NCBI GenBank assembly: GCA_963765575.1
Contig: CAVXWZ010000011.1
Location: 32,001-96,000 of the forward strand
Length of the DNA: 64,000 nt
Direction: 5' to 3'
From: an uncultured cyanobacterium
GTDB lineage: Bacteria > Cyanobacteriota > Cyanobacteriia > PCC-6307 > Cyanobiaceae
Below, in pieces: positions 6,446-59,222 of the stretch (its first letter is position 1; every line of letters begins with the position of its first letter). A program made the translations under genes and the position numbers. The notes beneath the pieces are model-generated. The model was not told where the DNA came from. It saw only the letters and a list, made by a program, of their open reading frames with translations, and ran no database searches.

Positions 6446-6455
6446 CCCAGGGTGA

Positions 6456-6917
6456 TCAGGGCCGGTGGGTGGAGGCCTGGGCGCCGACGGGTGGGTCGGC
6501 GGTGCGCGATGGCAGGACGCGTTGCGCGACCAGGCGGGCTCCGTGCAGCACCAGGGCGGCGCCGACCAGCGGCAACCAGGTGCGAAACAACCCCATCATC
6601 ACAGTCGGCGCGACCCCCAGCAGCGCCGCCGGCAGCGGCGTCTGCTCCGGCCAGGGCGCGATCGCCGGCAGCCCCAGGCTGTGGATGCCGCACACCGCCC
6701 CCACCAGGCCGGCCTGCAGATGGCTGTCGTCGGGATCGACCCGCTGCAGATGGAAGGCCAGCAGGCCGTAGAGAAGGCCGCAGCCGCCGGCCCGCAGGGC
6801 CGCTTCCAGACCCAGCGGCAGGCCCAGCAGCAGGGCGGCGAGGCCGGCCGTCAGCGCCCAGACGAGCGAGCGCCGGCGCAGCTGCTGGCGGGATGGCGAG
6901 GTGGCGGCCTGGCTCAC
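6456..6917 (-). CDS. Hypothetical membrane protein
   Basis: 153-aa ORF with hydrophobic segments, directly upstream of the SNF2 gene. Confidence 0.6.
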   Translation of the reverse strand: MSQAATSPSRQQLRRRSLVWALTAGLAALLLGLPLGLEAALRAGGCGLLYGLLAFHLQRVDPDDSHLQAGLVGAVCGIHSLGLPAIAPWPEQTPLPAALLGVAPTVMMGLFRTWLPLVGAALVLHGARLVAQRVLPSRTADPPVGAQASTHRP

Positions 6918-6976
6918 GGTGGCGCCCCGGAGGGCAGGGCCTGTGCCGGGCGATCATGCACCCCTGCCGGTCCGCC

Positions 6977-8020: not shown

Positions 8021-8054
8021 GGTTCTTACCCTGCGGGCTGCAGATCCGCTCTCG

Positions 8055-13536
<5,482 letters not shown>

Positions 13537-36495: not shown

Positions 36496-38493
<1,998 letters not shown>

Positions 38494-38587
38494 TCACCCC
38501 CACGCCCACCGCTGCGGTCACCGCCCTGCCCACAATGGCCCCAGGCGGAAGCCCAGTCCGCCCGTGTCCCCCCACACCCCTGCGCCC

Positions 38588-38986
38588 ATGCGACTGCTGC
38601 ACACCATGCTCCGGGTGGGCGATCTGGAGCGTTCGCTCGCCTTCTACACCGATGTGCTCGGCATGCGCCTGCTGCGCCGCAAGGACTACCCCAGCGGCCG
38701 CTTCACCCTGGCCTTCGTGGGCTATGGCGAGGAGAGCGACCACTCGGTGCTGGAGCTCACCCACAACTGGGACACCAGCAGCTACGAGCTGGGCGAGGGC
38801 TACGGCCACATCGCCCTGGGGGTCGACGACATCCACGCGGTCTGCGCTCAGATCCGCGCCAAGGGCGGCCGGGTGGTGCGCGAACCCGGGGCGATGAAGC
38901 ACGGCAGCACCGTGATCGCCTTCGTGGAAGATCCCGACGGCTACAAGGTGGAGCTGATCCAGCTCTCCTCCCGTGCCGCCGCCTGA
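38588..38986 (+). CDS. gloA: Lactoylglutathione lyase
   Basis: [37 protein letters not shown]. Confidence 0.95.
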
Positions 38987-42905: not shown

Positions 42906-43008
42906 GGCGCCACCGGCGCAGCGGCCGTCTCCCTGCGGAGGGCGGCCGTCTTCCGACATACCCCCGGCGATGGGGGTCATCCGCAGATCCGCCCCCTAGC
43001 CCCAGACG

Positions 43009-43434
43009 ATGGCCAAGAAAGTCGTTGCCGTAATCAAGCTGGCCCTCGATGCCGGCAAAGCCAACCCCGCGCCGCCGGTGGGTCCTGCCCTCGGTCAGCA
43101 CGGCGTCAATATCATGGCGTTCTGCAAGGAGTACAACGCCCGCACCCAGGAGAAAGCCGGCTATGTGATTCCGGTGGAGATCTCGGTCTTTGAAGACCGC
43201 AGCTTCACCTTCATCACCAAGACTCCGCCCGCCTCGGTGCTGATCTCCAAGGCCGCCGGCATTGAGAAGGGCGCCGCCACCTCCGCCATGGGGTCGGTGG
43301 GTGCCATCAGCCGCGCCCAGCTCGAGGAGATCGCCAAGACCAAGCTGCCCGACCTCAACTGCACCAGTGTGGAGTCGGCCATGCGCATCATCGAAGGCAC
43401 CGCCCGCAACATGGGCGTCGCCGTCAACGACTGA
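43009..43434 (+). CDS. rplK: 50S ribosomal protein L11
   Basis: [28 protein letters not shown]. Confidence 0.98.
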
Positions 43435-43496
43435 GCGAGCGGGCCCCCAGGGTTGCGTTGCTCTCCGTCCATTCCGATCCTTCTTATCCACTCAGC

Positions 43497-43525
43497 GGGG
43501 GAGACCCACCGGTCGCCTGCACCCC
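43497..43525 (+). promoter_or_regulatory. Putative L1-binding autoregulatory RNA element before rplA
   Basis: GGGGGAG-ACC(CACC)GGT-CG-CCTGC-ACCCC: outer GGGG/CCCC stem with internal loop and short hairpin, resembling known L1 operators. Confidence 0.55.
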
Positions 43526-43534
43526 ATTCCTGCC

Positions 43535-44242
43535 ATGCCCAAGCTGTCCAAGCGCTATTCCGACCTGGCCGCCAAGGTCGATGAGCGGTCCTACGCCCCG
43601 CTCGAGGCCATCGAGCTGGTGAAGGCCAACGCCACGGCCAAGTTCGACGAGACGATCGAGGCCCACGTGCGCCTCGGCATCGATCCCAAGTACACCGACC
43701 AGCAACTGCGCACCACCGTGGCCCTGCCCCACGGCACCGGCCAGGCCATCCGCATCGCCGTGATCGCCCGCGGTGAAGCCGTGGCCGCCGCCAAGGCCGC
43801 CGGTGCGGATCTCTCCGGCGACGACGACCTGGTGGAGGCCATCGCCAAGGGGGAGATGGACTTCGACCTGCTGATCGCCACCCCGGACATGATGCCCAAG
43901 GTGGCCAAGCTCGGCCGCGTGCTCGGCCCCCGCGGTCTGATGCCCAACCCCAAGGCCGGCACCGTGACCACCGACCTGGCCGGCGCCATCGGCGACTTCA
44001 AGGCCGGCAAGCTGGAGTTCCGCGCCGACCGCAGCGGCATCGTGCACGTGCGCTTCGGCAAGGCCAGCTTCGAGCCCGCCAAGTTGCTCGACAACCTCAA
44101 GGCCCTGCAGGAAACCATCGACCGCCAGAAGCCCAGTGGCGCCAAGGGCCGCTACTGGCGCTCCCTCTACGTCACCTCCACCATGGGTCCCTCGGTGCAG
44201 GTGGACTTCGCCGCCCTGCAGGACATCAAGCAGGAGGGTTGA
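43535..44242 (+). CDS. rplA: 50S ribosomal protein L1
   Basis: [35 protein letters not shown]. Confidence 0.98.
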
Positions 44243-44441
44243 GGCCGAGAGGAGGGCGAGGCGGCGCGGCTGCTTCCCAGGCCCTGCCTGCTTCGATGAC
44301 CGTGACGCACAGTGGCCACGGATGGCCTGGTGCCGCTGACCCCGCCGCGCTAGCGGCAGCTGGCTCCAGGCAGGCGGCAACCTTGCGGCTCTCCTGCAGC
44401 TGTTCTTTCAGGGTTGGGAGGAGGAAGCTCCCGAGGCGGAG

Positions 44442-45862
44442 GTGATCTGGAGCACCGAGGGGTCCGTGCGGCGGCGCGAGTCTGACCTCGGCGGTACGCG
44501 AGGCCCGGCGGCAGCTGGCCAGCTGTGGATGTTGGCCGGGCCGCCGCCATGTGGGTCTTTACCTCGGAGACGACAGTCCCAACCTCGTGGCTGGGTTGGC
44601 CTTCTTTCTCGATGGCCATTGCCAGATCGTGCTGCCCCAGCACGCCCCCCGTGATCAACTGAGCCAGCAGCTCATCACCATGGGCTGTGATCGGATCCTC
44701 AGCGACCAGCCTGACTTCGTGCCATCAGGCTGGCAGCCCAGGGCGACTCTGGCCTGGGCTGGCGGCCGGCTCCAGCTGCTCTGCCCTGAAGCTGAAGAGC
44801 CGCCGGGGCCAGGCTGCGCCGGATCCGGACCTCGCCTCTGCCGCGTTTCAGATCCTCTCCTCGGGAACCACCACGGGGCTTCCTTCGCTGCAGAGCCGCA
44901 CGTTTTTCTCGCTGCTCAGCTACGCCACCGCTGGCGAAGACTGGCTCTACTACACGCCCAGGCGCCTGGTGTGGCGCAACCTGCAGTTTCCCGGGCCCCG
45001 GGCCCAGCTGCTCAACCTGATCCTGGCCGGTGGCTGCCTCTGCTGGTTCTGCGCTGAGCAGGAGGATCAGCTCGGGGAGCTCTATGGCCGTAGTGGTGCC
45101 ACCCGCCTCCATCTCTTCGTGCCGCTGCTGCGGCGGCTGGTGGCCCAACAGGCCCTGCTGCGCTTCCCCGCTGAGCTGCAGTTGCTGGTCGGCACCGACC
45201 GGGTGCCAACGGCCCTGCGCGCTGCCGTGCACCGCCAGCGCCCGTCCAGCCTGGCCATCACCTACTCCACCAGCCAGTGCGGGCCGATCACGTACCTGCC
45301 CGCCAACCGGGCGCTGGAGCAGCCGGAATCGGTGGGCTGGCCGCTGCCCAACGTCCAGGTGGGGTTCATGGCGCCGCCAGACCGTGATGGGGCTGCCGAG
45401 ATCGTGGTCGACAAGACCATCACCCTGGCCTATCCCTCGCCGCTGGTCGGCTGGCAAGAGCACACCCAGTCCGTGGCGGCACTTCGCCCTGGCGATCGGT
45501 TGCGCAAACTGGACGATGGCCAGTTTCTCTATGCCGGCAGGGCCAATGATGTTTTCCTGCTGCGGGGGGTGCTGGTGTCGCCCCACGAACTGGAGGCCTT
45601 CCTGGAAGCCCAGCCCGGGGTGCTCGAGGCGGTGGCCTTCGGCGCCGAATCGAGCACCTATGGCGCGGTGCCCATGGCGGTAGTCCAGCTGGCGCCAGGA
45701 TTGGACCCCACGACAACGGCCCAGCAGCTGCAACGGCGCTCCCGGCAGCTCTTTGGTTTCCGAGGTCTCTATGCCGTTCACATCAACCAGGAGGTGCCTC
45801 GGGGAGTGGGAGGCAAGCCGCTGCGGCGGCAGCTCGCCCAGATCTACCGGCTGAACGCCTGA
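44442..45862 (+). CDS. AMP-binding (ANL superfamily) enzyme 1; frameshifts near 44480 and 44810, start uncertain
   Basis: SSGTTTGLP P-loop, YSTSQ, PGD, GRANDVFLLRGVLVSPHELE, PRGVGGK. Confidence 0.75.
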
Positions 45863-45878
45863 CCCTGCAGGCAGGGGC

Positions 45879-46382
45879 TCAGCCGCCGGGTCGTTTCAGA
45901 AAGCGCAGGGCTTCGGCACGGAATCCCCGCCGTTCATAGAAGCGGTGGGCGTCGTGGTTGGCGAATTTGGAGAACAATTGAAAGGCCCTGGCACCCCTGG
46001 CCGCCATGAACTCCTCGGAGTGAGCGAGCAGACGGTTGCCGATGCCCTTGCCGCGGTGCTCCGGGGCGACAGCCAGGGCCAGGATCCAGCCCATGGGTTC
46101 ATCACAGGTGTAAACCGGAAGCAGGATCAGGCCAATGAACCCCGTCAGCTCGCCGTTGTTGTCGGCCACGAAGCACTTGTAGAGGTGGTCGGGCATGGCC
46201 TCCAGCCGCCGCTGGATCGCCCCGGGGGTGGAGGGATAGCCGAGGCTGCCCACCAGGCAGGCGATGGCGGGGAGGTCGCTGTCGCGCAGGTCACGGATCA
46301 GGCCGGCACAGGCCGCATGGCTTTCACCGCCGCCTCCGCTTTCTGGACGGTTGTCCCAGGGCAGCTGGGCAGGAGCTGTCAC
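45879..46382 (-). CDS. GNAT-family acyltransferase
   Basis: LAVAPEHRGKGIGNRLL, AHRFYERRGF; start overlaps the stop of the upstream AMP-binding gene. Confidence 0.9.
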   Translation of the reverse strand: MTAPAQLPWDNRPESGGGGESHAACAGLIRDLRDSDLPAIACLVGSLGYPSTPGAIQRRLEAMPDHLYKCFVADNNGELTGFIGLILLPVYTCDEPMGWILALAVAPEHRGKGIGNRLLAHSEEFMAARGARAFQLFSKFANHDAHRFYERRGFRAEALRFLKRPGG

Positions 46383-47970
46383 GACCTCAGGGCAAACTGC
46401 TCGGCCAACACACGCCGCAGGGGTTTGCCCGTGGGTCCGCGGGGGACATCCTCCACGATGACGACCTGCTTGGCCGAGCGAAAACCGAGCAACTCACGAC
46501 AGTGGTCCCGAAGCTGGGCGGCGATCTCCCTTGAGACCTCCGCTTCCGCTTCACCCACGGCCGCCCGGGCCGCTACGGCTGCACGGGCAGAGCCGCTCAG
46601 CATCACAGCGGCCATCGGGATGGCTCCGTAGGGGCTGGCCGGGGCGCCGAAGGCCACGCAGTCGGCCACGTCCGGTCGCTCTCGCAGCACGTCCTCGATC
46701 TCGAATGGAGACACCAGCACGCCACAGAACAGGAACACGTCATTGGAGCGACCCCCAAATCGGATCTGTCCGGTAGAGGATCGGGCCAGCAGATCGCCGG
46801 GGTTGAAGCTGCTGGTGTCCTCAAGCAGCTCGATCCTCCCAACTGCCATCGTTCCGGGGCAACCGCAGCCAGCGGCTCTTCCGAATCACCATTTCGTGAT
46901 AATCAAGCCCCTGCTTGTGCAGCAGCGCTGGACCATGGGGTTGGAAGCTCACACTCTCAAGGGGAAAACCCACCGATTCCACCTCGTCCAGCAGCTGCTC
47001 CGGAGGTAACCAGGTGAGCGGCCCCGTCTGGCTGGTGGCATAGGTGATGCCGAGCCGCAGCTTGCCGAGAGCTCGCCACCGCTCGACGCAGGTCCATGGG
47101 GATGTGGTCCGAGCCGGTAATGCAGAGAAATCCTTCCGGAAAACGACCGAGCTGTCCCTGCTGGAGCAGGCGCCGCAGGGTCAGGGGCGGGCAGGAGAAG
47201 CCGCTGGTGTTCGGGGGCAGCGAGCTGGGATCGAGCCCATGCCCGTCGCGCACCACGATGGGCTGGCCCCGCAGCAGGTAGCGCAGCTTGAACACCCGGG
47301 AGCTGTAGTCCTGCAGGCCCGGGCCCAGCAAGGGCTGCTCCAGGAGGTCGAAGGGCGACCAGTTCAGCCCCTGCTGCAGGGAGGCCATCCTCAGAAAGCT
47401 GATCCGGTGGATGCCCGGTCGACCGGAGGTGGTGCCTGACGTGATCGACAGAAAGGCGGCCGCATCGGCTCCCGCCTCGGCACCATCGTGATCCTTGTCG
47501 AAACCCGCCCCACGCCGATCCGATGGCCCTGGATCACGGATCTCAAGCAGCTGCAGACCCTCGGCGGTGATCCCCAAAGGGCGCACCTCCGCTTCGTCCA
47601 GGGGGCACTCTCCCTCGACGAGCAGGTGGGTGAGCTCCAGCCGCCGGATCAGTTCACGCCGTTCCCGCGCTGGGGCATAGCGGGCCAGCACGGCTTGGCT
47701 CATGCCAGCCCATACCAGCGCCAGCATGGCGATCAGATGCCGGGGGGAATCGCTGGCGTGAACCCCGACCCGGATCGGCCGGGACCTGGAGCAGCCTGAC
47801 AATGGATCCTGGAGCGCCCTGCCTTCCTGACGTAGCCGCTGCAGCAACTCCAGTCCAGTGATTCCAGGCAGATCGCCCCAGTCGATGACAACAATGTCTG
47901 AGGCGGCGACGAGCCGTTGCTCGAGCTCACCACGAAGCGTGTGGATTGCAAGGTCGCACCCGCAGCTCAT
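46379..47970 (-). CDS. AMP-binding (ANL superfamily) enzyme 2; frameshifts near 47065 and 46860
   Basis: TSGTTSGRP, GITYATSQTGP, NPGDL, GRSNDVFLFCGVLVSPFEIE, PRGPTGK across three frames. Confidence 0.8.
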
Positions 47971-48995
47971 ACCGCCGGCTGTGGGCTCAGTTCGAGGCGG
48001 TCACAACAGATCTGCATAATCTGATGTCCCAGGGCGGTGAGACGACCATGCCGCTGAATGGCACCCAGGGACGACTGCGTGAGTTCCTGCACAGAGGAGC
48101 GCAGTGTCTGCAGCTCCACGACCAGCTGGTCTCGGTCGGAGCGCCAGGGCATCGGGTGGCGGATAGCGGCGTCGAGAAAGGCCACCAGCCGCGCCGCCAC
48201 ATAAAAGGAATGGAGGATGCCGTTCATCGGCCTTGGATCGCGGCGAATCAGCACGCTGTAGCGCTCCTGGTCGGTGTTGGTGCACATCAGCTCGTTCTGG
48301 GAGAGCACGAACAGTTCGGCATGGGCGTATTCGTGGATCAGGGTCACAACCCAGGCGCAAAATGTACGCTCCATTGCCGCATTGATGATGCTGCCTCCCC
48401 TGAAGAAGAAGGTGGTGGCACTGCCGAACCATTGTCCCGCCTCCCTGGCGGCCGGTCCTGGCTCGGCCAAGATCACCACGGCTTGCAGGGCTTCCATGCC
48501 CCGTGCCAGAGGGGCATCGATTTTGCCAATGAAGTCGCGAGCTTCGCTGATGATGGCTGCCTGGGTGGTGCAACGGGCCGGAGCTGGGCTCTCGAGATCG
48601 AGCAGGAAATCGCCTCCTTCCGAGAAGAGTCCCACCAGCAGATCCCAGTGCTGGAGCGGCCGCGACTCCGCTCCATAGGCCAGGACCGTCAGTGGGGGCA
48701 GGAGATGTCTGATCTCCAGCCGCAGTGCTTCGATGAGGTCCGCAGCTGGGATGGCGTCAGGGTTTTGCAGCAGGATGCGGCCGATCTTCCAGTAGAAGAG
48801 ATACACCCATGGGCTCAGGGTGTTCTGGGCTTGCTGTTCAAAACGATCCTGCAGGGCTGCTGCCAACTGTGCTTCTGCCAGTGCAGGGGAATGGCCCTCA
48901 AAGGCCTGTATTGACCAGAGCAGATCAGATCGTCCGAGTGCCAACAGCTCAACGATCGACGCTACCTCAGGTGAGGTGTCGGATTTGAGAGTCAA
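47967..48995 (-). CDS. aKG-HExxH-type peptide-modifying enzyme
   Basis: FGSATTFFFRGG, LIHEYAHAEL, IRRDPRPMNGILHSFYV. Confidence 0.8.
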   Translation of the reverse strand: MTLKSDTSPEVASIVELLALGRSDLLWSIQAFEGHSPALAEAQLAAALQDRFEQQAQNTLSPWVYLFYWKIGRILLQNPDAIPAADLIEALRLEIRHLLPPLTVLAYGAESRPLQHWDLLVGLFSEGGDFLLDLESPAPARCTTQAAIISEARDFIGKIDAPLARGMEALQAVVILAEPGPAAREAGQWFGSATTFFFRGGSIINAAMERTFCAWVVTLIHEYAHAELFVLSQNELMCTNTDQERYSVLIRRDPRPMNGILHSFYVAARLVAFLDAAIRHPMPWRSDRDQLVVELQTLRSSVQELTQSSLGAIQRHGRLTALGHQIMQICCDRLELSPQPAV

Positions 48996-49177
48996 GCAGC
49001 ATTTCCACCATTGCCGGATTCGCCTTCACCCACTTTGGCCGAAAGGTGCGACTGGCAGGTGGGAACCGAGGCCGAGTTGCTGTGGTCGGGATCAATGAAT
49101 GGATCAGAGGGCTCTGCGCCTGAATTGGCTAGTGCCAAAGCTGCGAGTCGAAAACCGAAGAGATGACTGAGTTGCAT
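48992..49177 (-). CDS. Putative precursor peptide P0 (61 aa)
   Basis: MQLSHLFGFRLAAL...HLSAKVGEGESGNGGNAA; shares LFGF and KVG with the array peptides; stop overlaps the HExxH start. Confidence 0.6.
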   Translation of the reverse strand: MQLSHLFGFRLAALALANSGAEPSDPFIDPDHSNSASVPTCQSHLSAKVGEGESGNGGNAA

Positions 49178-49399
49178 GGTTGGCACAACAATAGTGGTGA
49201 AAAGGAGAACAAGCCTGGCAGCATCACCGGTCCGCCTCTCCTTCACTCACTTTGGCCGATAGCTGGGATGGGGATGTGTCGACCGCGACAGCTAGGTGCG
49301 TCACGGTGGCCTCCCCGAGGGTGGCTGGGCTGAGGCTGGGCCCACGGTTGACATCACGTATCAGATTGCGAGAAGGTCCCATGCTGACGAGTAGCCAGT

Positions 49400-49678
49400 T
49401 TGAGCCACGACCCAGCCCCAGACCGCGAGCTCGCCATGATCGGCAGCGCCCTGCGCTCCCTCTCCCTGCCGCCGCAGGATCTTGAGGGGCTTGAGGCTGA
49501 GCTGCGTCGTGACCACGCCAGTCTGCCGATCGAGCACCTGGGGCTGGACAGCCTCGGCCGCATGGAGTTCTGCATCCACCTGGAGCTCGACCACGGGGTG
49601 GTGATCACTCCGGAAACCCTGATCACGCTGAAGACGGTGGCGGCGTTGATCGAGTCGATCCAGGCCCAGTTGGTCTGA
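49400..49678 (+). CDS. Acyl/peptidyl carrier protein
   Basis: 92 aa, acidic, LGLDSLGRMEF phosphopantetheine-site motif. Confidence 0.8.
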   Translation: MSHDPAPDRELAMIGSALRSLSLPPQDLEGLEAELRRDHASLPIEHLGLDSLGRMEFCIHLELDHGVVITPETLITLKTVAALIESIQAQLV

Positions 49679-49682
49679 ATAG

Positions 49683-50718
49683 CTAGCCCGCCAGCTCTTC
49701 GGCCCCCACATCCCAGGCCAGGGGATCCAGGCCCTCTGAAGCCTCGTCTTGGCGAGCCTCGGTTCGCAGCAGGCTGGGCATGGCCTGCTCCAGATTCACC
49801 CCCTGCAGGAGCAGGTCGTGGAACAGGGTGTGGTGGGTGCAGCCCCTGTAGACGCGTCCACTGATCCTGCTCTGGCGCCGGTGCTGCTGCTGGTAGTAGC
49901 TGGCGATCGAGCCAGCGCAGGAGCGATCGGCGGCGTTGTGTTCGGGGTAGGCGAGCACCAGGCGGGTGCGCGGCCATCGCGGCCACCAGCTGCCGATGCC
50001 GCCGTGGGCCCTGGCCACGGCGCCGCCGGGCCGGAAGGTTTGGGGTTCACCACCTGCACCGATGGCCACACCCTGGGCCAGCCCCAGCTGCTGAGCCACC
50101 ACCAAAGCGGCCAGGCCGCCGGCGCTGGTGCCCAGGGTCTGCACCTGGGAGCGGCGCAGGCCACTGCGGCTGAGCCTGCCGAGGTGCTGACGCAGATGAC
50201 GGGTGATGTCTCGCAACACCTCGCCCTGGTGATGGAAATAGCCCTCGAGAGTATGGCGCCTGCACCAGCAGAAGATCGTGCCCGATTGTGCCGAGCGCCG
50301 AGAGGATGTAGGGCGTCGGCGCCATCAGCAGCCCCACATTGCCGGTGAAGCCGATCAGCACAGGCCGGGGCGGGCCATCGGAATCCGGAAGCGGAGCGGC
50401 TTGATAATGAATGATCTCGTGATACTTTCCCGGGTGTACCCGCCGGCTATAGCGGGCTGTGGCCGTCCTGTAGGAGGGCGAAAATCGTTTGGCTTTCTGT
50501 CGCCATCGCTTGAAATCGGAACTGGCGCCTGAATCGCGACGGGCCAGCCGCAACAGCGCTGCCAGCTCGCTGCCAGTGGCGAAGCGATCGATCAGCATCT
50601 GGTGCTGGTTGATGCGATTGGTGTTCAGCGCTTTGAGTCGCTCATACCACTGCGCCGGGGATTCGGCGCGCAGCTCTCGCTCCAGCTCCTCCCAGGGAAG
50701 TTGGGGGGGGCTGGTCAT
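49683..50718 (-). CDS. Alpha/beta-hydrolase-like protein; frameshift near 50260
   Basis: VLIGFTGN in the first frame and nucleophile elbow GTSAGG in the second; ATG overlaps the upstream stop. Confidence 0.6.
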
Positions 50719-53164
50719 GTCTGCAGGGCGTACTGCTCGCTGAGCAGCCGGCGCAGGGGCTTCCCGGTTGGGCCTGCGGGAATGGCATCGAGCGCCATGA
50801 TCCGGCGGGGACGGCGCTGGCCGAGGCCAGCGCGGGCCAGCTGGTCGAGTTCGGCAAGAACAGCGGGAGCTTGATGGCCGGTCCGCAGGCGCACGGCGGC
50901 CATCGGCACGCCCCCATAGCGCTTGGATTGGGCGCCGAAGGCCACGCATTGCTCCACGGCCTCGTGCTGGCTGAGCACCTCCTCGATCTCGTAGGGAGAG
51001 ATCAGCACGCTGGCGAACAGGAAGATGTCATTGGAGCGCCCCCCGAAGATCACCTGGCCCGATGCCGAGAAGGCCAGCAGGTCGCCCGGGTTGAAGGGGC
51101 TGTAGCCGGGCGCGCACACGATCACCTCACGGAAGCTGAGTCCGTCCCGTTCGTAGCGCACCGGACCGGTGGGCTCGAGCGTGACGCCCCGCAGGGGCCA
51201 GCCCACCGAATCCTTCTCCGCCAGCAGCGCTTCCGGGGGCAACCAGGTGAGCGGCCCGCTCTGGCTGGTGGCGTAGGTGATGCCCAGGCGCACGGTGCCG
51301 ATCGCCGCCACGGCCTGCCGCAGGTCCATCGGCACCCGGTCGCTGCCGCTGATCAGCAGAAACCCTGGCGGGCAGTGGCGCAGGTCGTCCCAGGCCAGAT
51401 GCAGCCGCAGCCCGTTGGGCGGCATCGGCATGCCATCGCAGTGCTCCGGGATGCTGCCGGCGGCGAACGGGGTGTCGCTGGAGCGAATCACCAGACCGCT
51501 TCCCTTGAGCAACACCACAAACTTGAACAGGCGGGCACTCCAGTTCTGGAGCCCCTCGCCCAGCAACGGCGAACGCAGCAGGTGGAAGGGGGAGTGAGCG
51601 TCTCCTGGATGCAGCATGGAGATGGCCTTCGCCTCCACCAGCCCCGGACGGCCTGAGCTGGTGCCCGAGGTGGTGCCGATCAAGAGCACGGGATTGCTGC
51701 CAGGCGCCTCGCCACAGACTTCAGGCGTGCTCTGGCGCTGCCAGCAGCCCAGGCCCGAGGGCAGGGAGCCGAGGCGGATCCAGTCCCCGGCGGTCTGGGG
51801 AGCCGGTGGCCGATGCGGTGGGTGAGGGCGAGGCGGTGTTCGAGCGCCTCCTGCTCGCGGGTGGTGGCGGTGATGGGCAGGATGGTCTGGGGCAGGGCCG
51901 AGAGCATCAGCGCCATCCCCGTGATCAGATTCACGGGGCCGTCTTCGATCTGAATGCCCACCCGGGCGGTGACTCCCCAGGTCTTGAGGGGGATGAGGGT
52001 GTGCAGTTCGCGCCGCTCGTTGGCGACCCGTTCGGCGAGGTTGTTGTAGCTGATGCTGTGTCCCAGCCAGTCGATGGCGGTGGCATCGGGCTCGGCACGG
52101 GTCAGCTCCCGCCAGCGCTCGTTGAGCTGCTCCTGCACGGGTTGCAGTGTCCCAGCCTCAACGGCGCTGGGCAGGGATACGGTGCCCCGGCCGCACCGCT
52201 CCAGCCGTTGGGCGGCAGCGTCCACCACCACCTCGCCGATGGGGGTGAGCCTGGCGTGCTCGCGCACCACTGCCAAAGAGGAGAGGCCCTGGGCCAGCTG
52301 TTGCTCCCGCAGTTGCTGAAAGGCGGCCAGGTCCTCCGGGCCAGTGAGGAGATCCATCGGCGGCTGGCTGAGGATCGTGTCGATCACGCCGATCACCCGC
52401 GAGACCACATGCAGGGAATGGAGGATGCCGTGCATCGGGCGGGGATCGGCGCGGATCAGCACCTGGTGGCGCTCCTCGTCGCGGTTGAGGCAGAGCACCT
52501 GCTCCTGCCCCAGGGCAAACAGCTCGCCGTGGGCATACTCATGCACCAGCACCTCCACGGTGGCAGCGAGGCTGCGCGGCAGCGAGGCGTTGAGCACACT
52601 GGCGCCACGAAAGAAGAAGGCTGTGACTCCGCCGAACGACTCTCCTCGCCGTTGGGAGCGGGGCCCGGGGATCGCCAGCACAAGCAGCCGCTGAAGCCGC
52701 AGCATCAAGCCATGCAGGTCAGGGTCGACCAGGGCAATCAGACGGCGTGCGGTCTGGATTTCCTGCTTCAGGGCGTCCAGGTGCAGCGCTGAGGGGGCAG
52801 AGAGATCCTCGACGAAGTCGCCACCTTCCTGCAGCACTGCCAGCAGGGTGGTCCACATCTGCGGGGACGCCTGATCGGAATCCCCGAACGCCACAACAGT
52901 GGGCCCTTGTGCAGGTGAGCCCCTCTCAGCAACGTGACTGTCGTGAGCCAGCCCATGCTCGGCCAGGGCCAATGCGGTGGTGAAGGCCCGCTGCCGTGCC
53001 TGGGAGCCAACCGGCAGATCGGACAGCACCACTTTGCCGAGCTCGTAGTAACCGAGATAGAGCCAGGGAGAGAGGGAGGTTGGCTGGTCCTCGATCCTTT
53101 GTTGAACTGTCTGCGGCAGTAAACCCCAGCCCAGCGATGGATCATGGGCGCTCAGCAAGGACAC
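50715..53164 (-). CDS. aKG-HExxH enzyme apparently fused to AMP-binding domain 3; frameshift near 51790
   Basis: LVHEYAHGEL and IRADPRPMHGILH, then in frame EPDATAIDWLGHSISYNNLA (ANL N-terminus); next frame TSGTSSGRP, YATSQ, PGDL, GRSND, PAGPTGK. Confidence 0.75.
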
Positions 53165-53345
53165 AGAGTCGGCTGAACTGCCGGTGGGCTGTATTCACCG
53201 CTCTGTGCACGCTGGAAGCGAGGTGGTTTTCGCCTGCGATCACGGGGAGAAGCTGCTTGGGGCTAGCCGAGTGGTTGAGTTGTGGCAGACAGTTTTACTT
53301 CAGCGTGGAAAAGGTTTGTTCAAGCGGGATCGAAGCTTGGGTTGG

Positions 53346-53498
53346 TTAATTTGGAATCATTTCAACGTTGATTCCCCGATGAGGGATGTCGATCTCATAT
53401 TCTCTACCCTCTCCGCCAATTTTTGGCTGAGTGCTGGAGGGGATGGCGTCGTGAGGCGCGAAGCCAAAAAGCTCGGTGATGAGAGCGGTATTGGTCAT
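53346..53498 (-). CDS. Putative RiPP precursor P1 (50 aa)
   Basis: MTNTALITELFGFAPHDAIPSSTQPKIGGEGREYEIDIPHRGINVEMIPN. Confidence 0.8.
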   Translation of the reverse strand: MTNTALITELFGFAPHDAIPSSTQPKIGGEGREYEIDIPHRGINVEMIPN

Positions 53499-53661
53499 GG
53501 AACTGTGGAGATGTGAATTCGAAGAGAATCGATTGAAGGCGTCATGATCGAGATATTGACGCTTCTACTTAATCAAACGAGAAACTGTTGCTAGCTGGTC
53601 TTTGCGGGTGGATGAATCCAGCTGGGAGGCCGAAGCGTGGTGGCTTCGTGACCTTTAAGGC

Positions 53662-53823
53662 TCACCAGATTTCAATCGGGGGCCACGGCTTTTCTACGCC
53701 GACGTGCTCAGTGGGAAACAATGGACGTCCAACTTTCGGCTGAGTGCTGGAGGAAATGGTGTGCTGACGGGCGAAACCAAAGAGGCAACCCGCGAGAGAA
53801 ACGTTGTCAGAGAGGATGGCCAT
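53662..53823 (-). CDS. Putative RiPP precursor P2 (53 aa)
   Basis: MAILSDNVSLAGCLFGFARQHTISSSTQPKVGRPLFPTEHVGVEKPWPPIEIW. Confidence 0.8.
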   Translation of the reverse strand: MAILSDNVSLAGCLFGFARQHTISSSTQPKVGRPLFPTEHVGVEKPWPPIEIW

Positions 53824-53848
53824 TGAACAGCAAATCACAATGTGACGC

Positions 53849-53877
53849 ATTTTTGCTGGGTTGCCAGAGTTTGTCAA
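53849..53877 (-). promoter_or_regulatory. Sigma70-like promoter upstream of P2
   Basis: TTGACA-17bp-AAAAAT on the minus strand. Confidence 0.4.
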
Positions 53878-54058
53878 GCCCCAGATCCGGGACGCCATTG
53901 ATCTCCCCGTCGCTCCCCGGGTTGACAGGCGATGAAGGCGAGCTGAGGGTAGGGCTAAGGCTTGATTTTGCCCGATGGGGTTCGGTCTGATCCACCTCTG
54001 CCCTCGGCCAGGGGCTCGCCGAACGACTGAATGCTGCCAGCCACGCCAGAGCTGGTCT

Positions 54059-54196
54059 TTAGGCTGGAATGGCTTCGTATCCGGGCGGCATGGGTTGAAC
54101 TGGGATGCCATTACCCATCTTGGGCTGGATACTGGAAGGAATGCTGTATTGACGGGCGAACCCGAAAAGCTTGTTTGCGAGGGCGGGATTGGTCAT
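54059..54196 (-). CDS. Putative RiPP precursor P3 (45 aa)
   Basis: MTNPALANKLFGFARQYSIPSSIQPKMGNGIPVQPMPPGYEAIPA. Confidence 0.8.
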   Translation of the reverse strand: MTNPALANKLFGFARQYSIPSSIQPKMGNGIPVQPMPPGYEAIPA

Positions 54197-54538
54197 GGGT
54201 TAAATGAAGTGAGAGGGCTGAAGTGAAGGTGGTTTGGCTGAGGTGGCTTCAACACTTAAAGATTTCGCTCTGCCAGGGAGGGGAGGTGCGTATCATAGGC
54301 AATCTAGAGCTGAAGAGATCTCAGCGGCTCAAAAGATCAGAGACGAGTTGCTTGACCCGCCTCCTTTTCAGATTCTAATTTCGCTCTTTCCCCCGAGATT
54401 GTCAAGCAGGAGCTGAGATCGCGAGGGGAGTATTTCAACAGGACTGACGGTTCTCTTCCCATGGCGCAGCGGGGGGGGCCGCCGGACAGCCTTCCAGAAA
54501 CAGTCAGCACAGAAAGGTAAGAATGCTATTCATCAGAC

Positions 54539-54566
54539 AAACCTCTGAGCAATTGCTCAGAGGTTT
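54539..54566. repeat. Perfect 28-bp palindrome
   Basis: aaacctctgagcaa|ttgctcagaggttt. Confidence 0.9.
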
Positions 54567-55247
54567 TTACTGCTACTGATTTTGGGAATCAATTGGCGAC
54601 CTCTAACCCGTGGCACTCACCATGCGCTGCTTTGCTGGGATCGACATGATCACCAACCGGACCCCGGACGGGACTACGATTCTGGCGTTTCAGGGCCCCA
54701 TGGTTGACGATGTGGCAGGGCATCGGAAAGTGGCCAGATATGGGTGACAGCAAGACGGAGTTCAGGATCGCCTTGCGGCCTGGGCACCGCAAGGAACTGC
54801 CTGATACGGCCTAGGACAGGTTGAGCATGCCTTCCCGGTGGTTAATCAGCAGTATTGCTTTGAGAAGACATGGACTCGGGCCATGGAGAAAACCGTTGCA
54901 AGGAGATCCTGCTGACTGCACGACCAAGAAATCTGGCCTAAATGCTCAACATTCAGCCAGCGGACGTTGGCTTTGACAAGCTGTTTGGTTGACGGAGTTG
55001 AGCGGACCATGTTGCAGATAACTTCAGCAACTGCGGCTGTGTGGTAACCAAAGTTCTGTACCTGCGGGCCTTGAGATGCTTCCCGCAGGCGATCGGAGGA
55101 ACAGGGACCGGATGGGTTCCGCCAAAGCAGTAGTTGTTGAAAAATGGAGTATTAGACGCTCGCTTTTTTAGAGCGGACTAGTCCGAATTTAAGACTAATG
55201 TACTCAACTTTGCGCTCTTGAAGCTAACTCTAAGTTTCCGGGTAGTT

Positions 55248-55399
55248 TTAGTTTTCTATGATTTCGCCTGGAGGGAGAGGATTCTTTGGGCCGACATGCA
55301 CTGAGCTCTCCAATTTTGGGCTGTGTGCTGGAGGGAATCGTGTGCTGACGGGCGAAGCCGAAAGAGGCCATCGACAAGAAGCGAGCTTGAATAAGGCAT
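55248..55399 (-). pseudogene. Precursor P4 with two apparent +1 frameshifts
   Basis: MPYSSSLLVDGLF / GFARQHTIPSSTQPKIG / VHVGPKNPLPPGEIIEN* in three successive frames. Confidence 0.65.
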
Positions 55400-55672
55400 A
55401 GTCACGGCAATGTGGATGGAATTGTAGTCACCATGCATTTGCTGCCCGAATTCGACAAGCCCCCGATCCGGGCCGCCAACGGGCTCTCTGGGGGTGCCTG
55501 ACATGGTGAAAGCTTCTGGCCTAATCACCAACTCCAAAGGCGTCGCAGACCATTTGGGGCGGGTCTCAAGCCTGACTCCCCCCGATGCTGCTCTAGTGTG
55601 ATCCAACTCTGACCTTGGACAGGGGGCTCGGCGAATGACTGAACGCTGCCAGGCCCCCCCCAGAGCTGATGT

Positions 55673-55810
55673 TTACTCTGGATTGGCTTCGTAGGCGGGG
55701 GACCTGGGTCTGAAGTCTGGGCCACCACCGATCTTGGGCTGAGTGCTGGAGGGGGTGGTGTATTGAGGTGCGAAGCCAAAAAGCTTGGGGATGAGAGCGG
55801 TATTGGACAT
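55673..55810 (-). CDS. Putative RiPP precursor P5 (45 aa)
   Basis: MSNTALIPKLFGFAPQYTTPSSTQPKIGGGPDFRPRSPAYEANPE. Confidence 0.8.
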   Translation of the reverse strand: MSNTALIPKLFGFAPQYTTPSSTQPKIGGGPDFRPRSPAYEANPE

Positions 55811-56028
55811 GGAATTGCAGGAATGTGATTCGAAGGTGACCGAAAAAAGAGGCGTCGTGATCGAGATATTGATACTTTTGCTTGATCAAGCGAGAGTGTC
55901 TTTGTCGCGCTGACCTTCCCGGGGGGATGAATACAGCGTACAGATAAGGAGGGCCCCCTAGTGCCCTATGGAGTGTTGAAAGCAAGCCTCAGAGTAATTT
56001 TAGCGGTACTCTGCTTCCATCGGGGGCT

Positions 56029-56148
56029 TCACTCGCGGCGTGCACGGCGACCCCCAACTTTCGGCTGAATGCTGGAGGGAATGGTGTGCTGACGCGCGAA
56101 ACCAAAGAGGTTGGTCACGAGAGCAGGATTTCCTGAAAGCTTTGCCAC
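56029..56148 (-). CDS. Putative RiPP precursor P6 (39 aa as written; may extend to 56000 if the G5 run lacks a base)
   Basis: GTG start, MAKLSGNPALVTNLFGFARQHTIPSSIQPKVGGRRARRE; alternative tail SPCTPRVKPPMEAEYR. Confidence 0.72.
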   Translation of the reverse strand: MAKLSGNPALVTNLFGFARQHTIPSSIQPKVGGRRARRE

Positions 56149-56419
56149 TGGAGGAATTACTATGACTCCTCTCACCTTGGCCTGGTTGCCAGGGTTTGTG
56201 CAACCCCAATATCCGGGACGCCATCGACCTCTCTGGAGATCCCTGCCGACCCTGGCAGTACTCACCATTGCTCCGCGGGGCAGAGAGGCGCTGAAGCCGA
56301 GCTGAGGGCAGGGCTCAGGCTTGATATCGACCGATCGGGTGCGGTGCTGATCAGCCTCTGCCTTCGGCCAGGTGCTGGCCACGCGAGTGAACTGCTGTCA
56401 GCCACGCCAAAGCTGGTCT

Positions 56420-56548
56420 TTAGGTTGGATTGGCTTCGTAGGGGGGTTGAACTGGCGTGCCCACACCCATCTTGGGCTGAGTGCTGGAGGGGATGGTGTA
56501 TTGACGGGAGAAGCCAAACAGCTTGTTGACGAAGATGGGATTGGCCAT
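56420..56548 (-). CDS. Putative RiPP precursor P7 (42 aa)
   Basis: MANPIFVNKLFGFSRQYTIPSSTQPKMGVGTPVQPPYEANPT. Confidence 0.8.
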   Translation of the reverse strand: MANPIFVNKLFGFSRQYTIPSSTQPKMGVGTPVQPPYEANPT

Positions 56549-56705
56549 GGGATGCATCGATTGGGTGAGATAGTTGGCAAAGATGTCGGGCTTGGAGCTG
56601 AATCAAGTGAGTCCACCGAATCGCAACTGAAGCGCCAGTTCAGGCAGAAATCCAATGATCCCGGCTCAGAGCGGTGCAGGCTTGATCTTGGCAAATCGCT
56701 TATTT

Positions 56706-56734
56706 ACTTTAATTGTATCTTCCCTCTTTGTCAA
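56706..56734 (-). promoter_or_regulatory. Near-consensus sigma70 promoter heading the precursor array
   Basis: TTGACA-17bp-TAAAGT on the minus strand in an AT-rich patch about 160 bp upstream of P7. Confidence 0.6.
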
Positions 56735-56904
56735 TTTAACGATCAGTCTCCTGGGCCAGGGGCCCAGCCCGCCGCGAGGTGACGCCACCGGGGCCGATGG
56801 GTTCAGCATGCCGCTGTGCGCCGGGTCCTGGGACGGTCCAGGGTCTTTCTTGAGGGTAGGCTGCTATGGTGATGAGCTGGCTTCGGCCAGACGGGCACGC
56901 GCCC

Positions 56905-56975
56905 GACCCCAGACAGCAGGTTGGACAAGGCTCCGGTTCGCCGGTGAATCCTTATTCGTAAGCCCTGCCGAGGTG
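56905..56975 (+). promoter_or_regulatory. L10 leader (rplJ autoregulatory RNA)
   Basis: AGACAGCAGG...CCTGCCGAGG motif upstream of rplJ. Confidence 0.75.
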
Positions 56976-57142
56976 AACGCGACAGGTTTCAGCCTCCAGT
57001 GCACCAGCGGCCTCCTGCCGCCGGCGAGCTGGTCGGGCCCGGAGCATGCAGCGGCCTCGCCACCAGTTCTGAGCCGTTTCCCGGCGCAGACGGTGTCCCA
57101 GGGCCGCGTACCCCGCTTGTTCCCCCGATCCGTTCCTTCCCT

Positions 57143-57676
57143 ATGGGCCGCACGCTGGAGAGCAAGCAACAGATCGTCGAAGAGCTCAAGGGGCTCCTCG
57201 GTGACGCCGAAATGGCGCTGGTCCTTGATTACAAGGGCCTGTCCATCAAGGAGATGTCTGACCTGCGGACCCGTCTGCAGGCCAGCAACGGTGTCTGCAA
57301 GGTGACCAAGAACACCTTGATGCGCCGGGCCATTGATGGCGACAGCGCCTGGTCGGAACTCGATTCCCTGCTCACTGGCACCAACGCCTTCGTGCTCATC
57401 AAGGGCGACGTGGGTGGTGCGGTGAAGGCCCTGCAGTCCTTCCAGAAGGACAGCAAGAAATCGGAAACGAAAGGAGGCCTGTTCGAAGGCAAGCTCCTCT
57501 CGCAAGCCGAAATCCAGGCCATCGGGGATCTGCCCTCCAAGGAGGTGCTCATGGCCCAGATCGCCGGTGCGATCAATGCCGTGGCCACCCAACTGGCGGT
57601 GGGCATCAACGAAGTTCCCTCCGGCCTCGCCCGGGCGCTCCAGCAGCACGCCGATGGCGACGGTTCGGCCTCCTGA
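57143..57676 (+). CDS. rplJ: 50S ribosomal protein L10
   Basis: [35 protein letters not shown]. Confidence 0.97.
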
Positions 57677-57750
57677 GGCCAACCCGCGATCGGCCCTGCA
57701 GGGCTCCTCGATTCGACTGTTTCCCACAGATCTGTTGCTGATTCTCAACC

Positions 57751-58140
57751 ATGACCGCTACCACTGACCAGATTCTCGACCAGCTCAAAACCCTCTCCCT
57801 GCTGGAAGCTTCCGAGCTCGTCAAGCAGATCGAAGAGGCCTTCGGTGTGTCTGCCGCCGCCTCCGCCGGGGTGGTGATGGCCGCTCCCGGCGCCGGCGGT
57901 GCCGCCGCTGAAGCCGTGGAGGAGCAAACCGAATTCGATGTGATCCTCGACGGTTTCGACGCCGCCGCCAAGATCAAGGTGCTCAAGGCCGTGCGCGAAG
58001 CCACCGGCCTCGGCCTCGGCGATGCCAAGGCCCTGGTGGAGGCCGCTCCCAAGGCGGTCAAGGAAGGCATCACCAAAGACGACGCCGAAGCCCTCAAGAA
58101 GGCCATCGAGGAGGTGGGCGGCAAGGTCACCATCAAGTGA
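57751..58140 (+). CDS. rplL: 50S ribosomal protein L7/L12
   Basis: [42 protein letters not shown]. Confidence 0.98.
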
Positions 58141-58174
58141 TCAGCTGCTGATGCCTCAGCCCCGGCTGAGCCCG

Positions 58175-58199
58175 CCGGCCCCCAGGGGCCGGTTTTTTT
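58175..58199 (+). terminator. Rho-independent terminator after rplL
   Basis: ccggcccc...ggggccgg hairpin followed by T7. Confidence 0.85.
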
Positions 58200-58226
58200 A
58201 TGGCAGCCTGCGCCAAAAGCCGGCAC

Positions 58227-58251
58227 AAAAAAAACCCCGCCGAAGGCGGGG
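58227..58251 (-). terminator. Rho-independent terminator of the convergent gene
   Basis: A8 then ccccgcc-gaa-ggcgggg. Confidence 0.8.
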
Positions 58252-58388
58252 CTCAGGGCTTGGAACGGTTTCCGGGAGTCTGTCCTCGTTTCGACCCCGG
58301 AATGGTCGTTCCGCACTCCTCACACCCCATGAACATAAAAGATGGTGAGGTGTGCAGCAAGGCTTGGGGGACACTCCTGCGATTGGTC

Positions 58389-59222
58389 TCAGGGCCGATA
58401 GGGCACCACCTGCAGGGCGATCACGCCGCCGGCCTCCGCCTCGGCGCTCGTGTTCTCCTGCGACCAGGCGCGAGCCCCCGGGCGGCCCAGGCGCAGGCTC
58501 TCCAGCCGGGCCAGGCGGGACTGGCTCGTGCTCGACCGGGAGACTCCCCTGGAGTCCCTGGAGCTGCGGGAGCTGGCGGCCCTGGCGGTGGCGGTGTCCA
58601 GCGCGCTGGGGGGCGGCGGCGGTGTGGCCAGGCCGAGCAGGGGGTCGCCACCGGCGTTCGCCCGGGCCAGCAGCACCGGCAGCGGCTCCGCGTTGCTCAC
58701 ATAGAGGTGTTGGAGGCTCTGGCCGCCGAACACGCGACGCTCGAAGGCCCAGCCTTCAGCCAGTTGCAGCTCCACCAAGCCGTCGCCGCTGGGCTCGGCG
58801 CTGCCCACCACCAGGGGGCTGGACTGCTCGGGGCTGCTGGCCAGCAGCTCCAGGCGCCCGCCGCGGCTCTCCACCCGCAGGCGCCAGGGATGGCTGAGGT
58901 CGTCGCCGGCGATGCGCAGAGAGTAGGCGCTGCTGGAGGAGTAGAGGCCGCAGCTGGTGGCGGGCAGGTCCTTCTCGTAGGTGGCCACCGAGCCGTCGTC
59001 GAAGCGACGCCAGCAGGGGCGGGTTGGTTCGAGCTGCTCGAGCACGACCAGGTTCCAGCGGTTGCCGCTGAGGGGCTGGGCCAGGGCCATGGTGCGCTCG
59101 GCCTCCACCGGGGCGCTGTCGAAGCGCGCGGCCGCCCGGGCCCACTGCTGGGGCAGGACAGCGGCCGCGAGGCTCACTGCCCCTGCGGCTGCCAGGTAGC
59201 GTCGCTTCAGCCTCAAGGTCAT
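58389..59222 (-). CDS. DUF3747-family cyanobacterial exported protein
   Basis: Signal peptide; WNLVVLEQL..RPCW, YSLRI, GWAFERR..LQHLY motifs. Confidence 0.7.
   Translation of the reverse strand: MTLRLKRRYLAAAGAVSLAAAVLPQQWARAAARFDSAPVEAERTMALAQPLSGNRWNLVVLEQLEPTRPCWRRFDDGSVATYEKDLPATSCGLYSSSSAYSLRIAGDDLSHPWRLRVESRGGRLELLASSPEQSSPLVVGSAEPSGDGLVELQLAEGWAFERRVFGGQSLQHLYVSNAEPLPVLLARANAGGDPLLGLATPPPPPSALDTATARAASSRSSRDSRGVSRSSTSQSRLARLESLRLGRPGARAWSQENTSAEAEAGGVIALQVVPYRP

Follow-up and report, generated by a model that had tools for sequence, protein, structure and literature searches.

The window analysed here (the whole stretch of 64,000 nucleotides, from whose first letter all positions are counted) comes from the genome of a high-GC picocyanobacterium (2.71 Mb, 11 contigs, completeness 99.97%). 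It carries an island of 12.9 kb that lies exactly between two ribosomal protein genes, rplA (end at 44242) and rplJ (start near 57143). The genes secE, nusG and rplK lie upstream and rplL lies downstream, so that the island is flanked by the rplKA and rplJL operons. The GC content is about 0.72 in the flanks and 0.54–0.68 in positions 44243–56750. Three complete genomes of the same genus are free of the cassette; in these the gap between rplA and rplJ is ~330–350 nt, and the 12.9 kb found here are therefore an insertion or a variable island. Our best explanation is a lineage-specific biosynthetic island of Cyanobium-group picocyanobacteria, seated in the ~340 nt rplKA/rplJL spacer and encoding a pathway of the RiPP (ribosomally made peptide with post-translational modifications) type. 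The pathway would combine Fe/α-ketoglutarate-dependent oxidation with acylation or ligation driven by ANL (AMP-binding) enzymes, and would resemble NosI/NosJ/NosK where an acyl carrier protein (ACP) and a hydrolase are present. The probability that we give to this explanation, mechanism included, is about 0.45. The genes and their borders are as follows, with related loci cited by L numbers.

43535–44242, + strand: rplA, bordering the island on the left; rplA of relatives matched in a single piece by tblastn
44305–45862, + strand: ANL-3, AMP-binding enzyme of an accessory type with one frameshift near 44814; Pfam AMP-binding and AMP-binding_C, tblastn with the L025 orthologue
45879–46382, − strand: GNAT acetyltransferase, intact, accessory; Pfam Acetyltransf_1 (9.8e-22)
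46379–47970, − strand: ANL-2, two frameshifts; tblastn with the L006 and L003 ANL proteins, Pfam matches on the pieces
47967–48995, − strand: α-ketoglutarate HExxH oxygenase 2 (HExxH-2), intact, 342 residues; TIGR04267 70.7 bits (cutoff 40), HEYAH and RRDPRPMNGILH motifs, family alignment
48992–49177, − strand: P8, candidate precursor of 61 residues; stop codon overlapping the HExxH-2 start, LFGF and SAKVG motifs as in the peptides of relatives
49400–49678, + strand: acyl or peptidyl carrier protein with a GLDSL serine site; Pfam PP-binding (1.3e-07)
49683–50718, − strand: protein of the α/β-hydrolase fold (GTSAGG) with one frameshift near 50206–50264; tblastn with the L006 orthologue, AlphaFold2 model of the orthologue
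50715 to about 52150, − strand: ANL-1, one frameshift near 51790–51806; tblastn, N-terminal part read in frame with HExxH-1
52150–53164 (the ANL-1 side starting at about 52150), − strand: α-ketoglutarate HExxH oxygenase 1 (HExxH-1); TIGR04267 74 bits (cutoff 40), motifs
53346–56548, − strand: candidate precursor array of seven genes, P1–P7; open reading frames (ORFs), seven-copy repeat family, coding signature, whole-genome peptide search
53346–53498, − strand: P7, in the array
53662–53823, − strand: P6, in the array
54059–54196, − strand: P5, in the array
55204–55377, − strand: P4, in the array, degenerate
55673–55810, − strand: P3, in the array
56029–56148, − strand: P2, in the array
56420–56548, − strand: P1, in the array
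57143–57676, + strand: rplJ, right border of the island; tblastn

Candidate precursor peptides and their distribution

A preliminary description of this DNA had listed eight LFGF...K[IVM]G peptides. All of these were located, seven in the array and the eighth (P8) directly before HExxH-2; one of them, P4, is degenerate, an extra base within the LFGF codons having produced SFGF and a shortened N-terminus. A search of the whole genome with the peptide returned the seven array copies and none elsewhere. In the 18-codon FGF..K[IVM]G block of the seven array copies, 5, 4 and 13 columns are variable at codon positions 1, 2 and 3, respectively, and pairwise comparison gave 117 synonymous and 86 non-synonymous codon differences in frame; the corresponding figures for the two remaining frames are 19/155 and 11/158. 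Judged from this codon pattern, the LFGF ORFs are genuine protein-coding genes, and purifying selection acts on the precursors. The array shows a higher-order repeat in which the intergenic DNA is conserved too, a structure by which its origin is assigned to segmental duplication.

The alternative that the array is a repeated non-coding RNA was considered and rejected: an Rfam search of 43000–58500 (E ≤ 1) returned only a Cyano-1 motif outside the island and a chance miRNA match, no tRNAs were found, and the codon-position pattern favours coding.

Across 18 aligned peptides the L, F, G and F of the first motif, one Ser and one Lys are invariant. The peptides begin with M-x(1-12)-LFGF, after which S-x4-K-[VIMF]-[GSA] occurs one to four times, usually with a Glu (often Glu-Pro) a few residues further on. 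Most peptides have one copy of the second motif, while two are found in L006a, L024, L029/L032 and L034, three in L025/L036 and L033, and four in L037. Since the peptides of L033 and L037 end immediately after their last repeat, the repeated motif and not the variable tail is the best candidate for the modified core, with LFGF as the putative recognition anchor; the conserved K[VIM]G block, too, looks like core and not like the end of a leader. The array peptides of the window form a diverged subtype with the core PSS[TI]QPK[IVM]G and tails of 7–34 residues rich in Pro and Glu, and P8 retains the common precursor type. No NCBIfam or Pfam model matched the precursor family, and the leader is not of the NHLP/Nif11 type (no NCBIfam match at E 0.01).

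For comparison, 25 loci were assembled: the window, eight from a pattern scan in which each of 185,579 species was represented by one genome, three from 401 genomes of the family and 13 from metagenomes. The eight loci of the species-wide scan are all from Cyanobium/Synechococcaceae. At the same site, the 24 other loci share a core of LFGF peptide, HExxH protein and ANL protein, usually joined by the hydrolase and the ACP. Wherever there is sequence upstream of the HExxH gene (23 loci; the remaining two start inside this gene), an LFGF peptide was present (23/23). The ANL gene stands beside the HExxH gene wherever there is enough sequence (21/21, two of them partial), and the hydrolase and carrier protein occur in 14 of the 15 loci that reach rplA, with L003 having neither. 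Both flanking genes, rplJ and rplA, were seen in 12 loci and one of them in six; no locus lies at any other site.

Within the 401 family genomes the peptide profile (E ≤ 1e-5) matched only G000, G033, G132, G173, G247, G028 and G047, and these seven, no more and no fewer, are also the genomes with the HExxH subfamily. The LFGF peptide is absent from four genomes whose HExxH proteins are distant, and a marginal peptide match in G070 (E 0.0065) is probably due to chance. Strong ANL matches were obtained in G000, G247, G047, G132 and G033 only, the contigs of G173 and G028 being too short for the gene. The cassette is present in four of 29 sampled genomes of the same genus. A RiPP-type relation between the LFGF precursors and the enzymes beside them is in our judgement highly probable. 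The 'library' of peptides suggested in the preliminary description, with eight precursors, is peculiar to this genome; most relatives have one to three. By gene content, the island has here been enlarged by duplication, with two HExxH genes, three ANL genes and eight precursors.

Oxygenases, adenylating enzymes and the proposed carrier relay

Both HExxH proteins of the window carry the HEYAH...R-x-DPRPM-x-GILH signature, as the preliminary description had it, and both exceed the TIGR04267 cutoff. In an alignment of 19 family members neither the HExxH nor the R-x-D-x-RP-M-x-G-I-x-H block varies. An alignment of the HExxH profile with the solved structure of ChlH (8s5f_A) gave an E value of 1.5e-5, with HExxH and R-x-D-x-RP-x-x-G-x-LH aligned. 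On these motifs and scores HExxH-1 and HExxH-2 belong to the family of α-ketoglutarate HExxH peptide oxygenases (TIGR04267/IPR026337), and Fe(II)/α-ketoglutarate-dependent oxidation is predicted. In a large protein collection 60 homologues of HExxH-2 were found, of which all of the named ones are from Cyanobium or Synechococcaceae; the Cyanobium proteins are only distant kin of the other family members.

HExxH-2 and P5 were co-folded, each with its own alignment, in three runs alongside three controls. The median complex score of the three runs, which is the model's own confidence and not a measurement, was 0.79, and the best of the three controls reached 0.02. In the calibration, this mark was reached by 116 of 157 solved complexes and two of 215 mismatched pairs, counts that hold only roughly here because own alignments were used in the modelling. 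The runs shared at least 66% of their contacts, with a predicted local distance difference test (pLDDT) value of at least 58 for the partner. Residues 9–13 of P5 (K-LFGF) lie on HExxH-2 helices 21–35 and 68–79, and residues 18–30 (core) run along the strand 190–197 and rest on His221, Glu222, His225 and His262. As a prediction, the model supports binding of P5 to HExxH-2 and the division of the precursor into anchor and core.

The position of residues 18–30 on the metal motif would also suit an enzyme that cuts its substrate. According to the available part of the source (PMC12636437), cleavage of the backbone by PflC/PosC, which belong to the same family, leaves an amide and takes place at a conserved motif for which the small residue in first position (Ala) is decisive. 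By analogy, the small residue after K-[VIMF] would be hydroxylated and the backbone cut there, after which the released pieces of LFGF leader or core, with their C-terminal amides, would be processed by the ANL system. The residue in question is always Gly, Ala or Ser, no protease is encoded and multi-core precursors would need cutting; against this, the kinship of the Cyanobium proteins with the rest of the family is only distant, and most of the characterized members, in the parts of the literature at hand, only hydroxylate. We regard oxidative cleavage as unlikely and keep to hydroxylation followed by ANL-driven acylation or ligation.

Three AMP-binding genes, a DSL carrier protein and a GNAT had been recognized in the preliminary description, and Pfam confirmed each of these. 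The ANL proteins are very divergent, with Pfam scores near the cutoff. The P-loop, the ribose-binding Asp of A7, the Arg/Asp of the A8 hinge and the catalytic Lys of A10 are invariant in 11 sequences. For the intact ANL protein of L006, AlphaFold2 gave a complete two-domain ANL fold (pLDDT 85, predicted template-modelling score, pTM, 0.78), for which the nearest structures (TM-score ~0.7) are MenE, oxalyl-CoA synthetase, 4-chlorobenzoate ligase, the aryl-acid adenylating enzymes CahJ and FscC, and the amide-bond synthetase McbA. HExxH and ANL genes are closely coupled. Four-base overlaps of start and stop codons join P8 to HExxH-2, HExxH-2 to ANL-2, ANL-2 to the GNAT and ANL-1 to the hydrolase, in agreement with the linkage described earlier. 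In the open frame 51680–53164, HExxH-1 runs into ANL-1 without a stop, whereas the corresponding pair in L006 is separate (a stop, then ATG). No natural HExxH–ANL fusion was found among the proteins of 600–2000 residues searched, a weak negative.

This close partnership has suggested to us a second use for the ANL enzyme, namely action directly on the ribosomal peptide. It would adenylate the peptide's own Glu or Asp side chain or its C-terminus, and attack by Lys, Ser or a hydroxyl made by the HExxH enzyme would close a macrolactam or macrolactone in each core repeat; the product would be graspetide-like but made without an ATP-grasp enzyme, with the ACP and hydrolase as later additions. In a variant, the peptide would be thioesterified to the carrier for cyclization or release by the hydrolase. 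The ANL gene is the universal partner of the HExxH gene and the peptide, even in L003, which has no ACP or hydrolase; the HExxH and ANL genes are translationally coupled, and in the window share one reading frame. Ser/Thr and the invariant Lys stand in the core repeats, in most cases with a Glu only a few residues away, and these are the residue types cross-linked in graspetides as far as the accessible text of PMC8939145 describes them. The absence from the island of any gene for acyl-donor biosynthesis also fits. Several observations count against ring closure: the ANL model is nearest to ligases of small acids and aryl acids, Glu is far from Lys and variable in position in the array peptides of the window, and the ACP and hydrolase in 14 of 15 loci are left unexplained. 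To our knowledge no ANL enzyme is known to activate the side chain of a peptide, and a literature search on ANL enzymes in RiPPs gave only reviews. Direct action on the peptide seems improbable to us; if true, it would be a new way to macrocyclize RiPPs, with activation borrowed from non-ribosomal peptide synthetases. Transfer of an acyl group to the peptide in dependence on the ANL enzyme, as our preferred pathway has it, is tentatively favoured, at slightly less than even odds.

The GTSAGG protein, called a hydrolase in the preliminary description, is an α/β-hydrolase by fold. The AlphaFold2 model of its orthologue (pLDDT 90, pTM 0.90) places an α/β-hydrolase domain behind a helical N-terminal domain and matches esterases with Z ~16. 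The triad Ser198 (L006 numbering, in GTSAGG), Asp264 and His296 is invariant in 65 sequences. The hydrolase profile found 509 proteins at E ≤ 1e-3, some of which have the domain behind an adenylation–thiolation (A–T) didomain. In the distant homologues P0136, P0161 and P0128 it forms the C-terminus of A–T didomain proteins of ~910 residues, one of them fused to a sulfotransferase. Because of this placement behind A–T didomains, the hydrolase domain is functionally tied to carrier-bound acyl groups. In the window and in all relatives the ACP gene runs opposite to the HExxH, ANL and hydrolase genes and in the direction of rplK–rplA. It lies directly downstream of rplA in simple loci, so that it could be read through from the ribosomal operon.

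An ACP–ANL–hydrolase trio (27–53% identity) also occurs in L030, from another genus of the same family, at 5909–8758 (+ strand) without HExxH gene or LFGF peptide. It invites the reading that there is no RiPP system at all: a small acyl metabolite would be what the ANL enzyme, ACP and hydrolase produce or recycle, and the small ORFs would have a regulatory role or no connection with these genes. The homologous hydrolase domains behind A–T didomains and the lack of an exporter or protease in the island agree with this, but it conflicts with the strict co-occurrence of peptide, HExxH and ANL genes, the coding selection on the peptide and its repeated cores, a HExxH family known only from peptide modification and the HExxH-2/P5 complex model. 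We think it very improbable, and retain a peptide pathway. Downstream of the L030 trio are proteins of 396 and 267 residues; the former was tried as a HExxH protein and rejected (hhalign probability 0.45%).

The GNAT had been proposed as the acyltransferase of the pathway, a role that is not borne out. Its orthologues were found only in L006, L025 and the fragment L028, where the gene is beside rplA; with presence in three of the 25 loci, the window included, plus one fragment, it is therefore accessory. A second ANL gene accompanied by the GNAT is likewise restricted to the window, L006 (where ANL remnants are present), L025 and the fragment L028.

Proposed pathway and comparison with known systems

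The conserved core has three members, the precursor, the α-ketoglutarate HExxH oxygenase and a dedicated, very divergent ANL enzyme, and most loci add a carrier protein and a hydrolase. We infer every chemical step of the pathway, oxidation and acylation included; gene content, conservation, co-occurrence, coding selection, folds and catalytic residues are observed. In the first step, the N-terminal helical domain of the HExxH enzyme would grip LFGF and the core would be laid over the Fe site, where a core residue would be oxidized by β-hydroxylation, as characterized family members do. The ANL enzyme would then activate a carboxylic acid with ATP. In loci with ACP and hydrolase the acyl group would pass to the carrier, and the hydrolase-fold protein would transfer it to the peptide or edit it, the likeliest acceptors being the invariant Lys or the new hydroxyl. 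In L003, which has neither, the ANL enzyme would ligate directly, like an amide-bond synthetase.

Among known systems, ChlBH/ChlH (radical SAM cyclophane), BpmH (biphenomycins), PflC/PosC and the proline hydroxylase of nitrilobacillin have in common with the island the TIGR04267 family, the ChlH motifs and an adjacent precursor gene. Judging by the available portions of PMC12636437 and PMC13060819, the characterized enzymes cleave the backbone or act as hydroxylases on Asp, His, Gln or Pro, and their partners are radical SAM, MNIO or asparagine-synthetase-like enzymes. The island instead has a constant ANL partner, and its precursor family (LFGF anchor, S-x4-K-[VIMF]-[GSA] cores) differs from theirs in matching no NCBIfam/Pfam model. 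Domain scans found no radical SAM gene between rplA and rplJ, as the earlier description of a radical-SAM-free cluster implied. Unlike the triceptide clusters of radical SAM and HExxH enzymes, the island has no fused or adjacent radical SAM cyclophane enzyme; in 25 of 25 loci there is either no room for one or only the genes listed.

The carrier relay has its closest counterpart in NosI/NosJ/NosK of the thiopeptide nosiheptide, where, according to the part of PMC5585349 available, an acid is activated, loaded on a carrier and then released or transferred by a hydrolase-like protein. In both cases an adenylating enzyme, a discrete carrier and a hydrolase-like protein stand together in a RiPP cluster, a likeness of roles, and the features of such a relay are present in the cassette (ANL adenylation residues, carrier serine site and α/β-hydrolase triad). 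The island differs in having no NosL-like donor-making gene, in the absence of the relay from L003 and in an unrelated peptide scaffold.

Acylation of RiPPs by GNAT enzymes and ACPs is described, in the accessible text of PMC9811515, for goadvionins and lipolanthines (ACP-dependent, N-terminal) and for selidamides (Lys/Orn side chain, some cyanobacterial). The window shares with goadvionins and selidamides a GNAT, a carrier protein and an invariant Lys; it differs in that the GNAT is not part of the core, in having no lanthipeptide enzymes, polyketide synthase or arginase, and in a leader that is not NHLP/Nif11. Graspetides, as the available source describes them, similarly have one leader and then several short core repeats rich in Ser/Thr, Lys and Glu, but no ATP-grasp ligase was found by Pfam scans among the submitted ORFs of the island. 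The prochlorosin arrays of marine picocyanobacteria have many paralogous precursor genes near a few enzymes, and the window resembles them in this and in its small cyanobacterial genome; it differs in leader and enzymes (there is no LanM), and its array is exceptional.

In full-text literature searches no work was found in which HExxH enzymes are connected with ANL enzymes, with carrier proteins or with peptides of Cyanobium, although the supplementary sequence-similarity network clusters of preprints might show a cyanobacterial one; the view that the combination belongs to no described class stands to this extent. We propose it as a candidate for a new RiPP family, with a known oxygenase class, a new partner and a new precursor family. 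The α-ketoglutarate HExxH enzymes are a recently recognized class of RiPP tailoring enzymes with few known partners and reactions, and their pairing with an ANL enzyme points to undescribed chemistry, oxidation together with ATP-driven acylation or ligation. The cassette is compact (three to five genes), with intact orthologues in cultured Cyanobium strains. With its fixed site between the L11/L1 and L10/L12 operons, empty in close relatives, it is also a clear example, among streamlined picocyanobacterial genomes, of an island that varies.

Several results weigh against the proposed pathway. No protease or exporter was found among the scanned ORFs of the island (Pfam, NCBIfam); both are also absent from many RiPP clusters, as stated in the part of PMC12636437 available. 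No gene that makes an acyl donor is present in the island. The hydrolase has no Pfam match and no PDB sequence match, and its fold matches are generic esterases only. The core chemistry cannot depend on the carrier relay, as L003 lacks both the ACP and the hydrolase, and the L030 trio means that the ACP–ANL–hydrolase module can serve something other than LFGF peptides. The counts of loci overstate their independence because the genomes are kin (one bacterial family) and some metagenome loci are near-copies. To these are added the nature of the complex score, noted above, and five frameshifts in four genes of the island.

Taken as a whole, the interpretation in the preliminary description stands in part: coding peptides, their co-occurrence with HExxH and ANL genes and modelled binding to HExxH-2 speak for it, whereas the GNAT and the library are not supported as general features, and four enzyme genes are broken here. 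The frameshifts, the read-through from HExxH-1 into ANL-1 and the setting between rplA and rplJ had escaped it.

Frameshifts and minor features of the island

The frameshifts are in ANL-1 (51790–51806), ANL-2 (near 47070 and near 46850), the hydrolase (50206–50264) and ANL-3 (near 44814); none lies in a long homopolymer. In all relatives the orthologues of these genes are intact single ORFs. Searched by tblastn with the intact L025 orthologue, ANL-3 is divided between frame +1 (44317–44958) and frame +2 (44747–45853). ANL-2, with the L006/L003 ANL proteins, falls into three frames (47937–47068, 47072–46887 and 46807–46382), and ANL-1 into frame −3 (52138–51785) and frame −2 (51797–50718). The hydrolase, with the intact L006 orthologue, is split over two frames. 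Nine flanking genes each aligned in one piece over at least 0.93 of the orthologue, with no frameshift.

Contigs for comparison were taken from two metagenome DNA runs of one study (7–8% of sampled words), in which the relatives are ~89–94% identical; no RNA run was listed as containing the stretch. These cover the island in pieces, including two of the five frameshift sites, and carry exactly the compensating differences there, with a single base missing at 44814 and a single C added after 51806. The frameshifts are therefore private to this assembly or strain, the relatives being intact and having compensating bases at the covered sites. With all three ANL genes and the hydrolase affected, the pathway may have lost its activity in this genome, or the assembly may be in error; either decay in this strain or assembly or polishing error among paralogous ANL copies could account for the pattern.

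Independently of the mechanism, the island in this genome could thus be a decaying remnant, first duplicated and then frameshifted, that yields no product. The five frameshifts outside long homopolymers, the frameshifted P4, the nine intact flanking genes and the single-base compensations at both covered sites argue for decay. Both HExxH genes, the ACP, the GNAT and seven precursors are intact, the precursors appear to be under purifying selection and paralogous ANL copies could mislead assembly or polishing, all of which argue the other way; we consider the balance to be even.

The array is interrupted by an unrelated low-GC spacer of ~1 kb, from 54230 to about 55200–55260. Over 54230–55260 it resembles nothing in related loci, and Pfam gave no match for the small ORFs that it contains. 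A perfect 22-nt palindrome near 54543–54564, seen by eye, is followed by a T-run on the + strand, and the two look like a terminator pointing against the array. A scan of 48900–57200 gave two promoter-like sequences (1.9 expected) and three terminator-like sequences (6.4 expected).

In L025, from a complete relative, a DDE transposase (PF13586, PF05598) separates the GNAT and ACP genes, and the interval from the precursor to rplJ holds a gene for an ABC transporter with fused solute-binding and permease parts, at 3483–5051 and 9997–11538 (both − strand); the transposase had no match in the window when used as a query. In the metagenome contig of one relative the end of rplA (44245) is joined to an ANL-2-like 3′ end (46385), a variant without ANL-3 and the GNAT, and another metagenome contig skips 44242–44394.

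Outside the island, matches to an ORF derived from L004 lie in two frames at 37636–38983 and may represent a spurious antisense ORF or a further frameshift. The Cyano-1 RNA motif is at 58259–58329 (− strand), just downstream of rplL, with 44.7 bits against a gathering score of 41.

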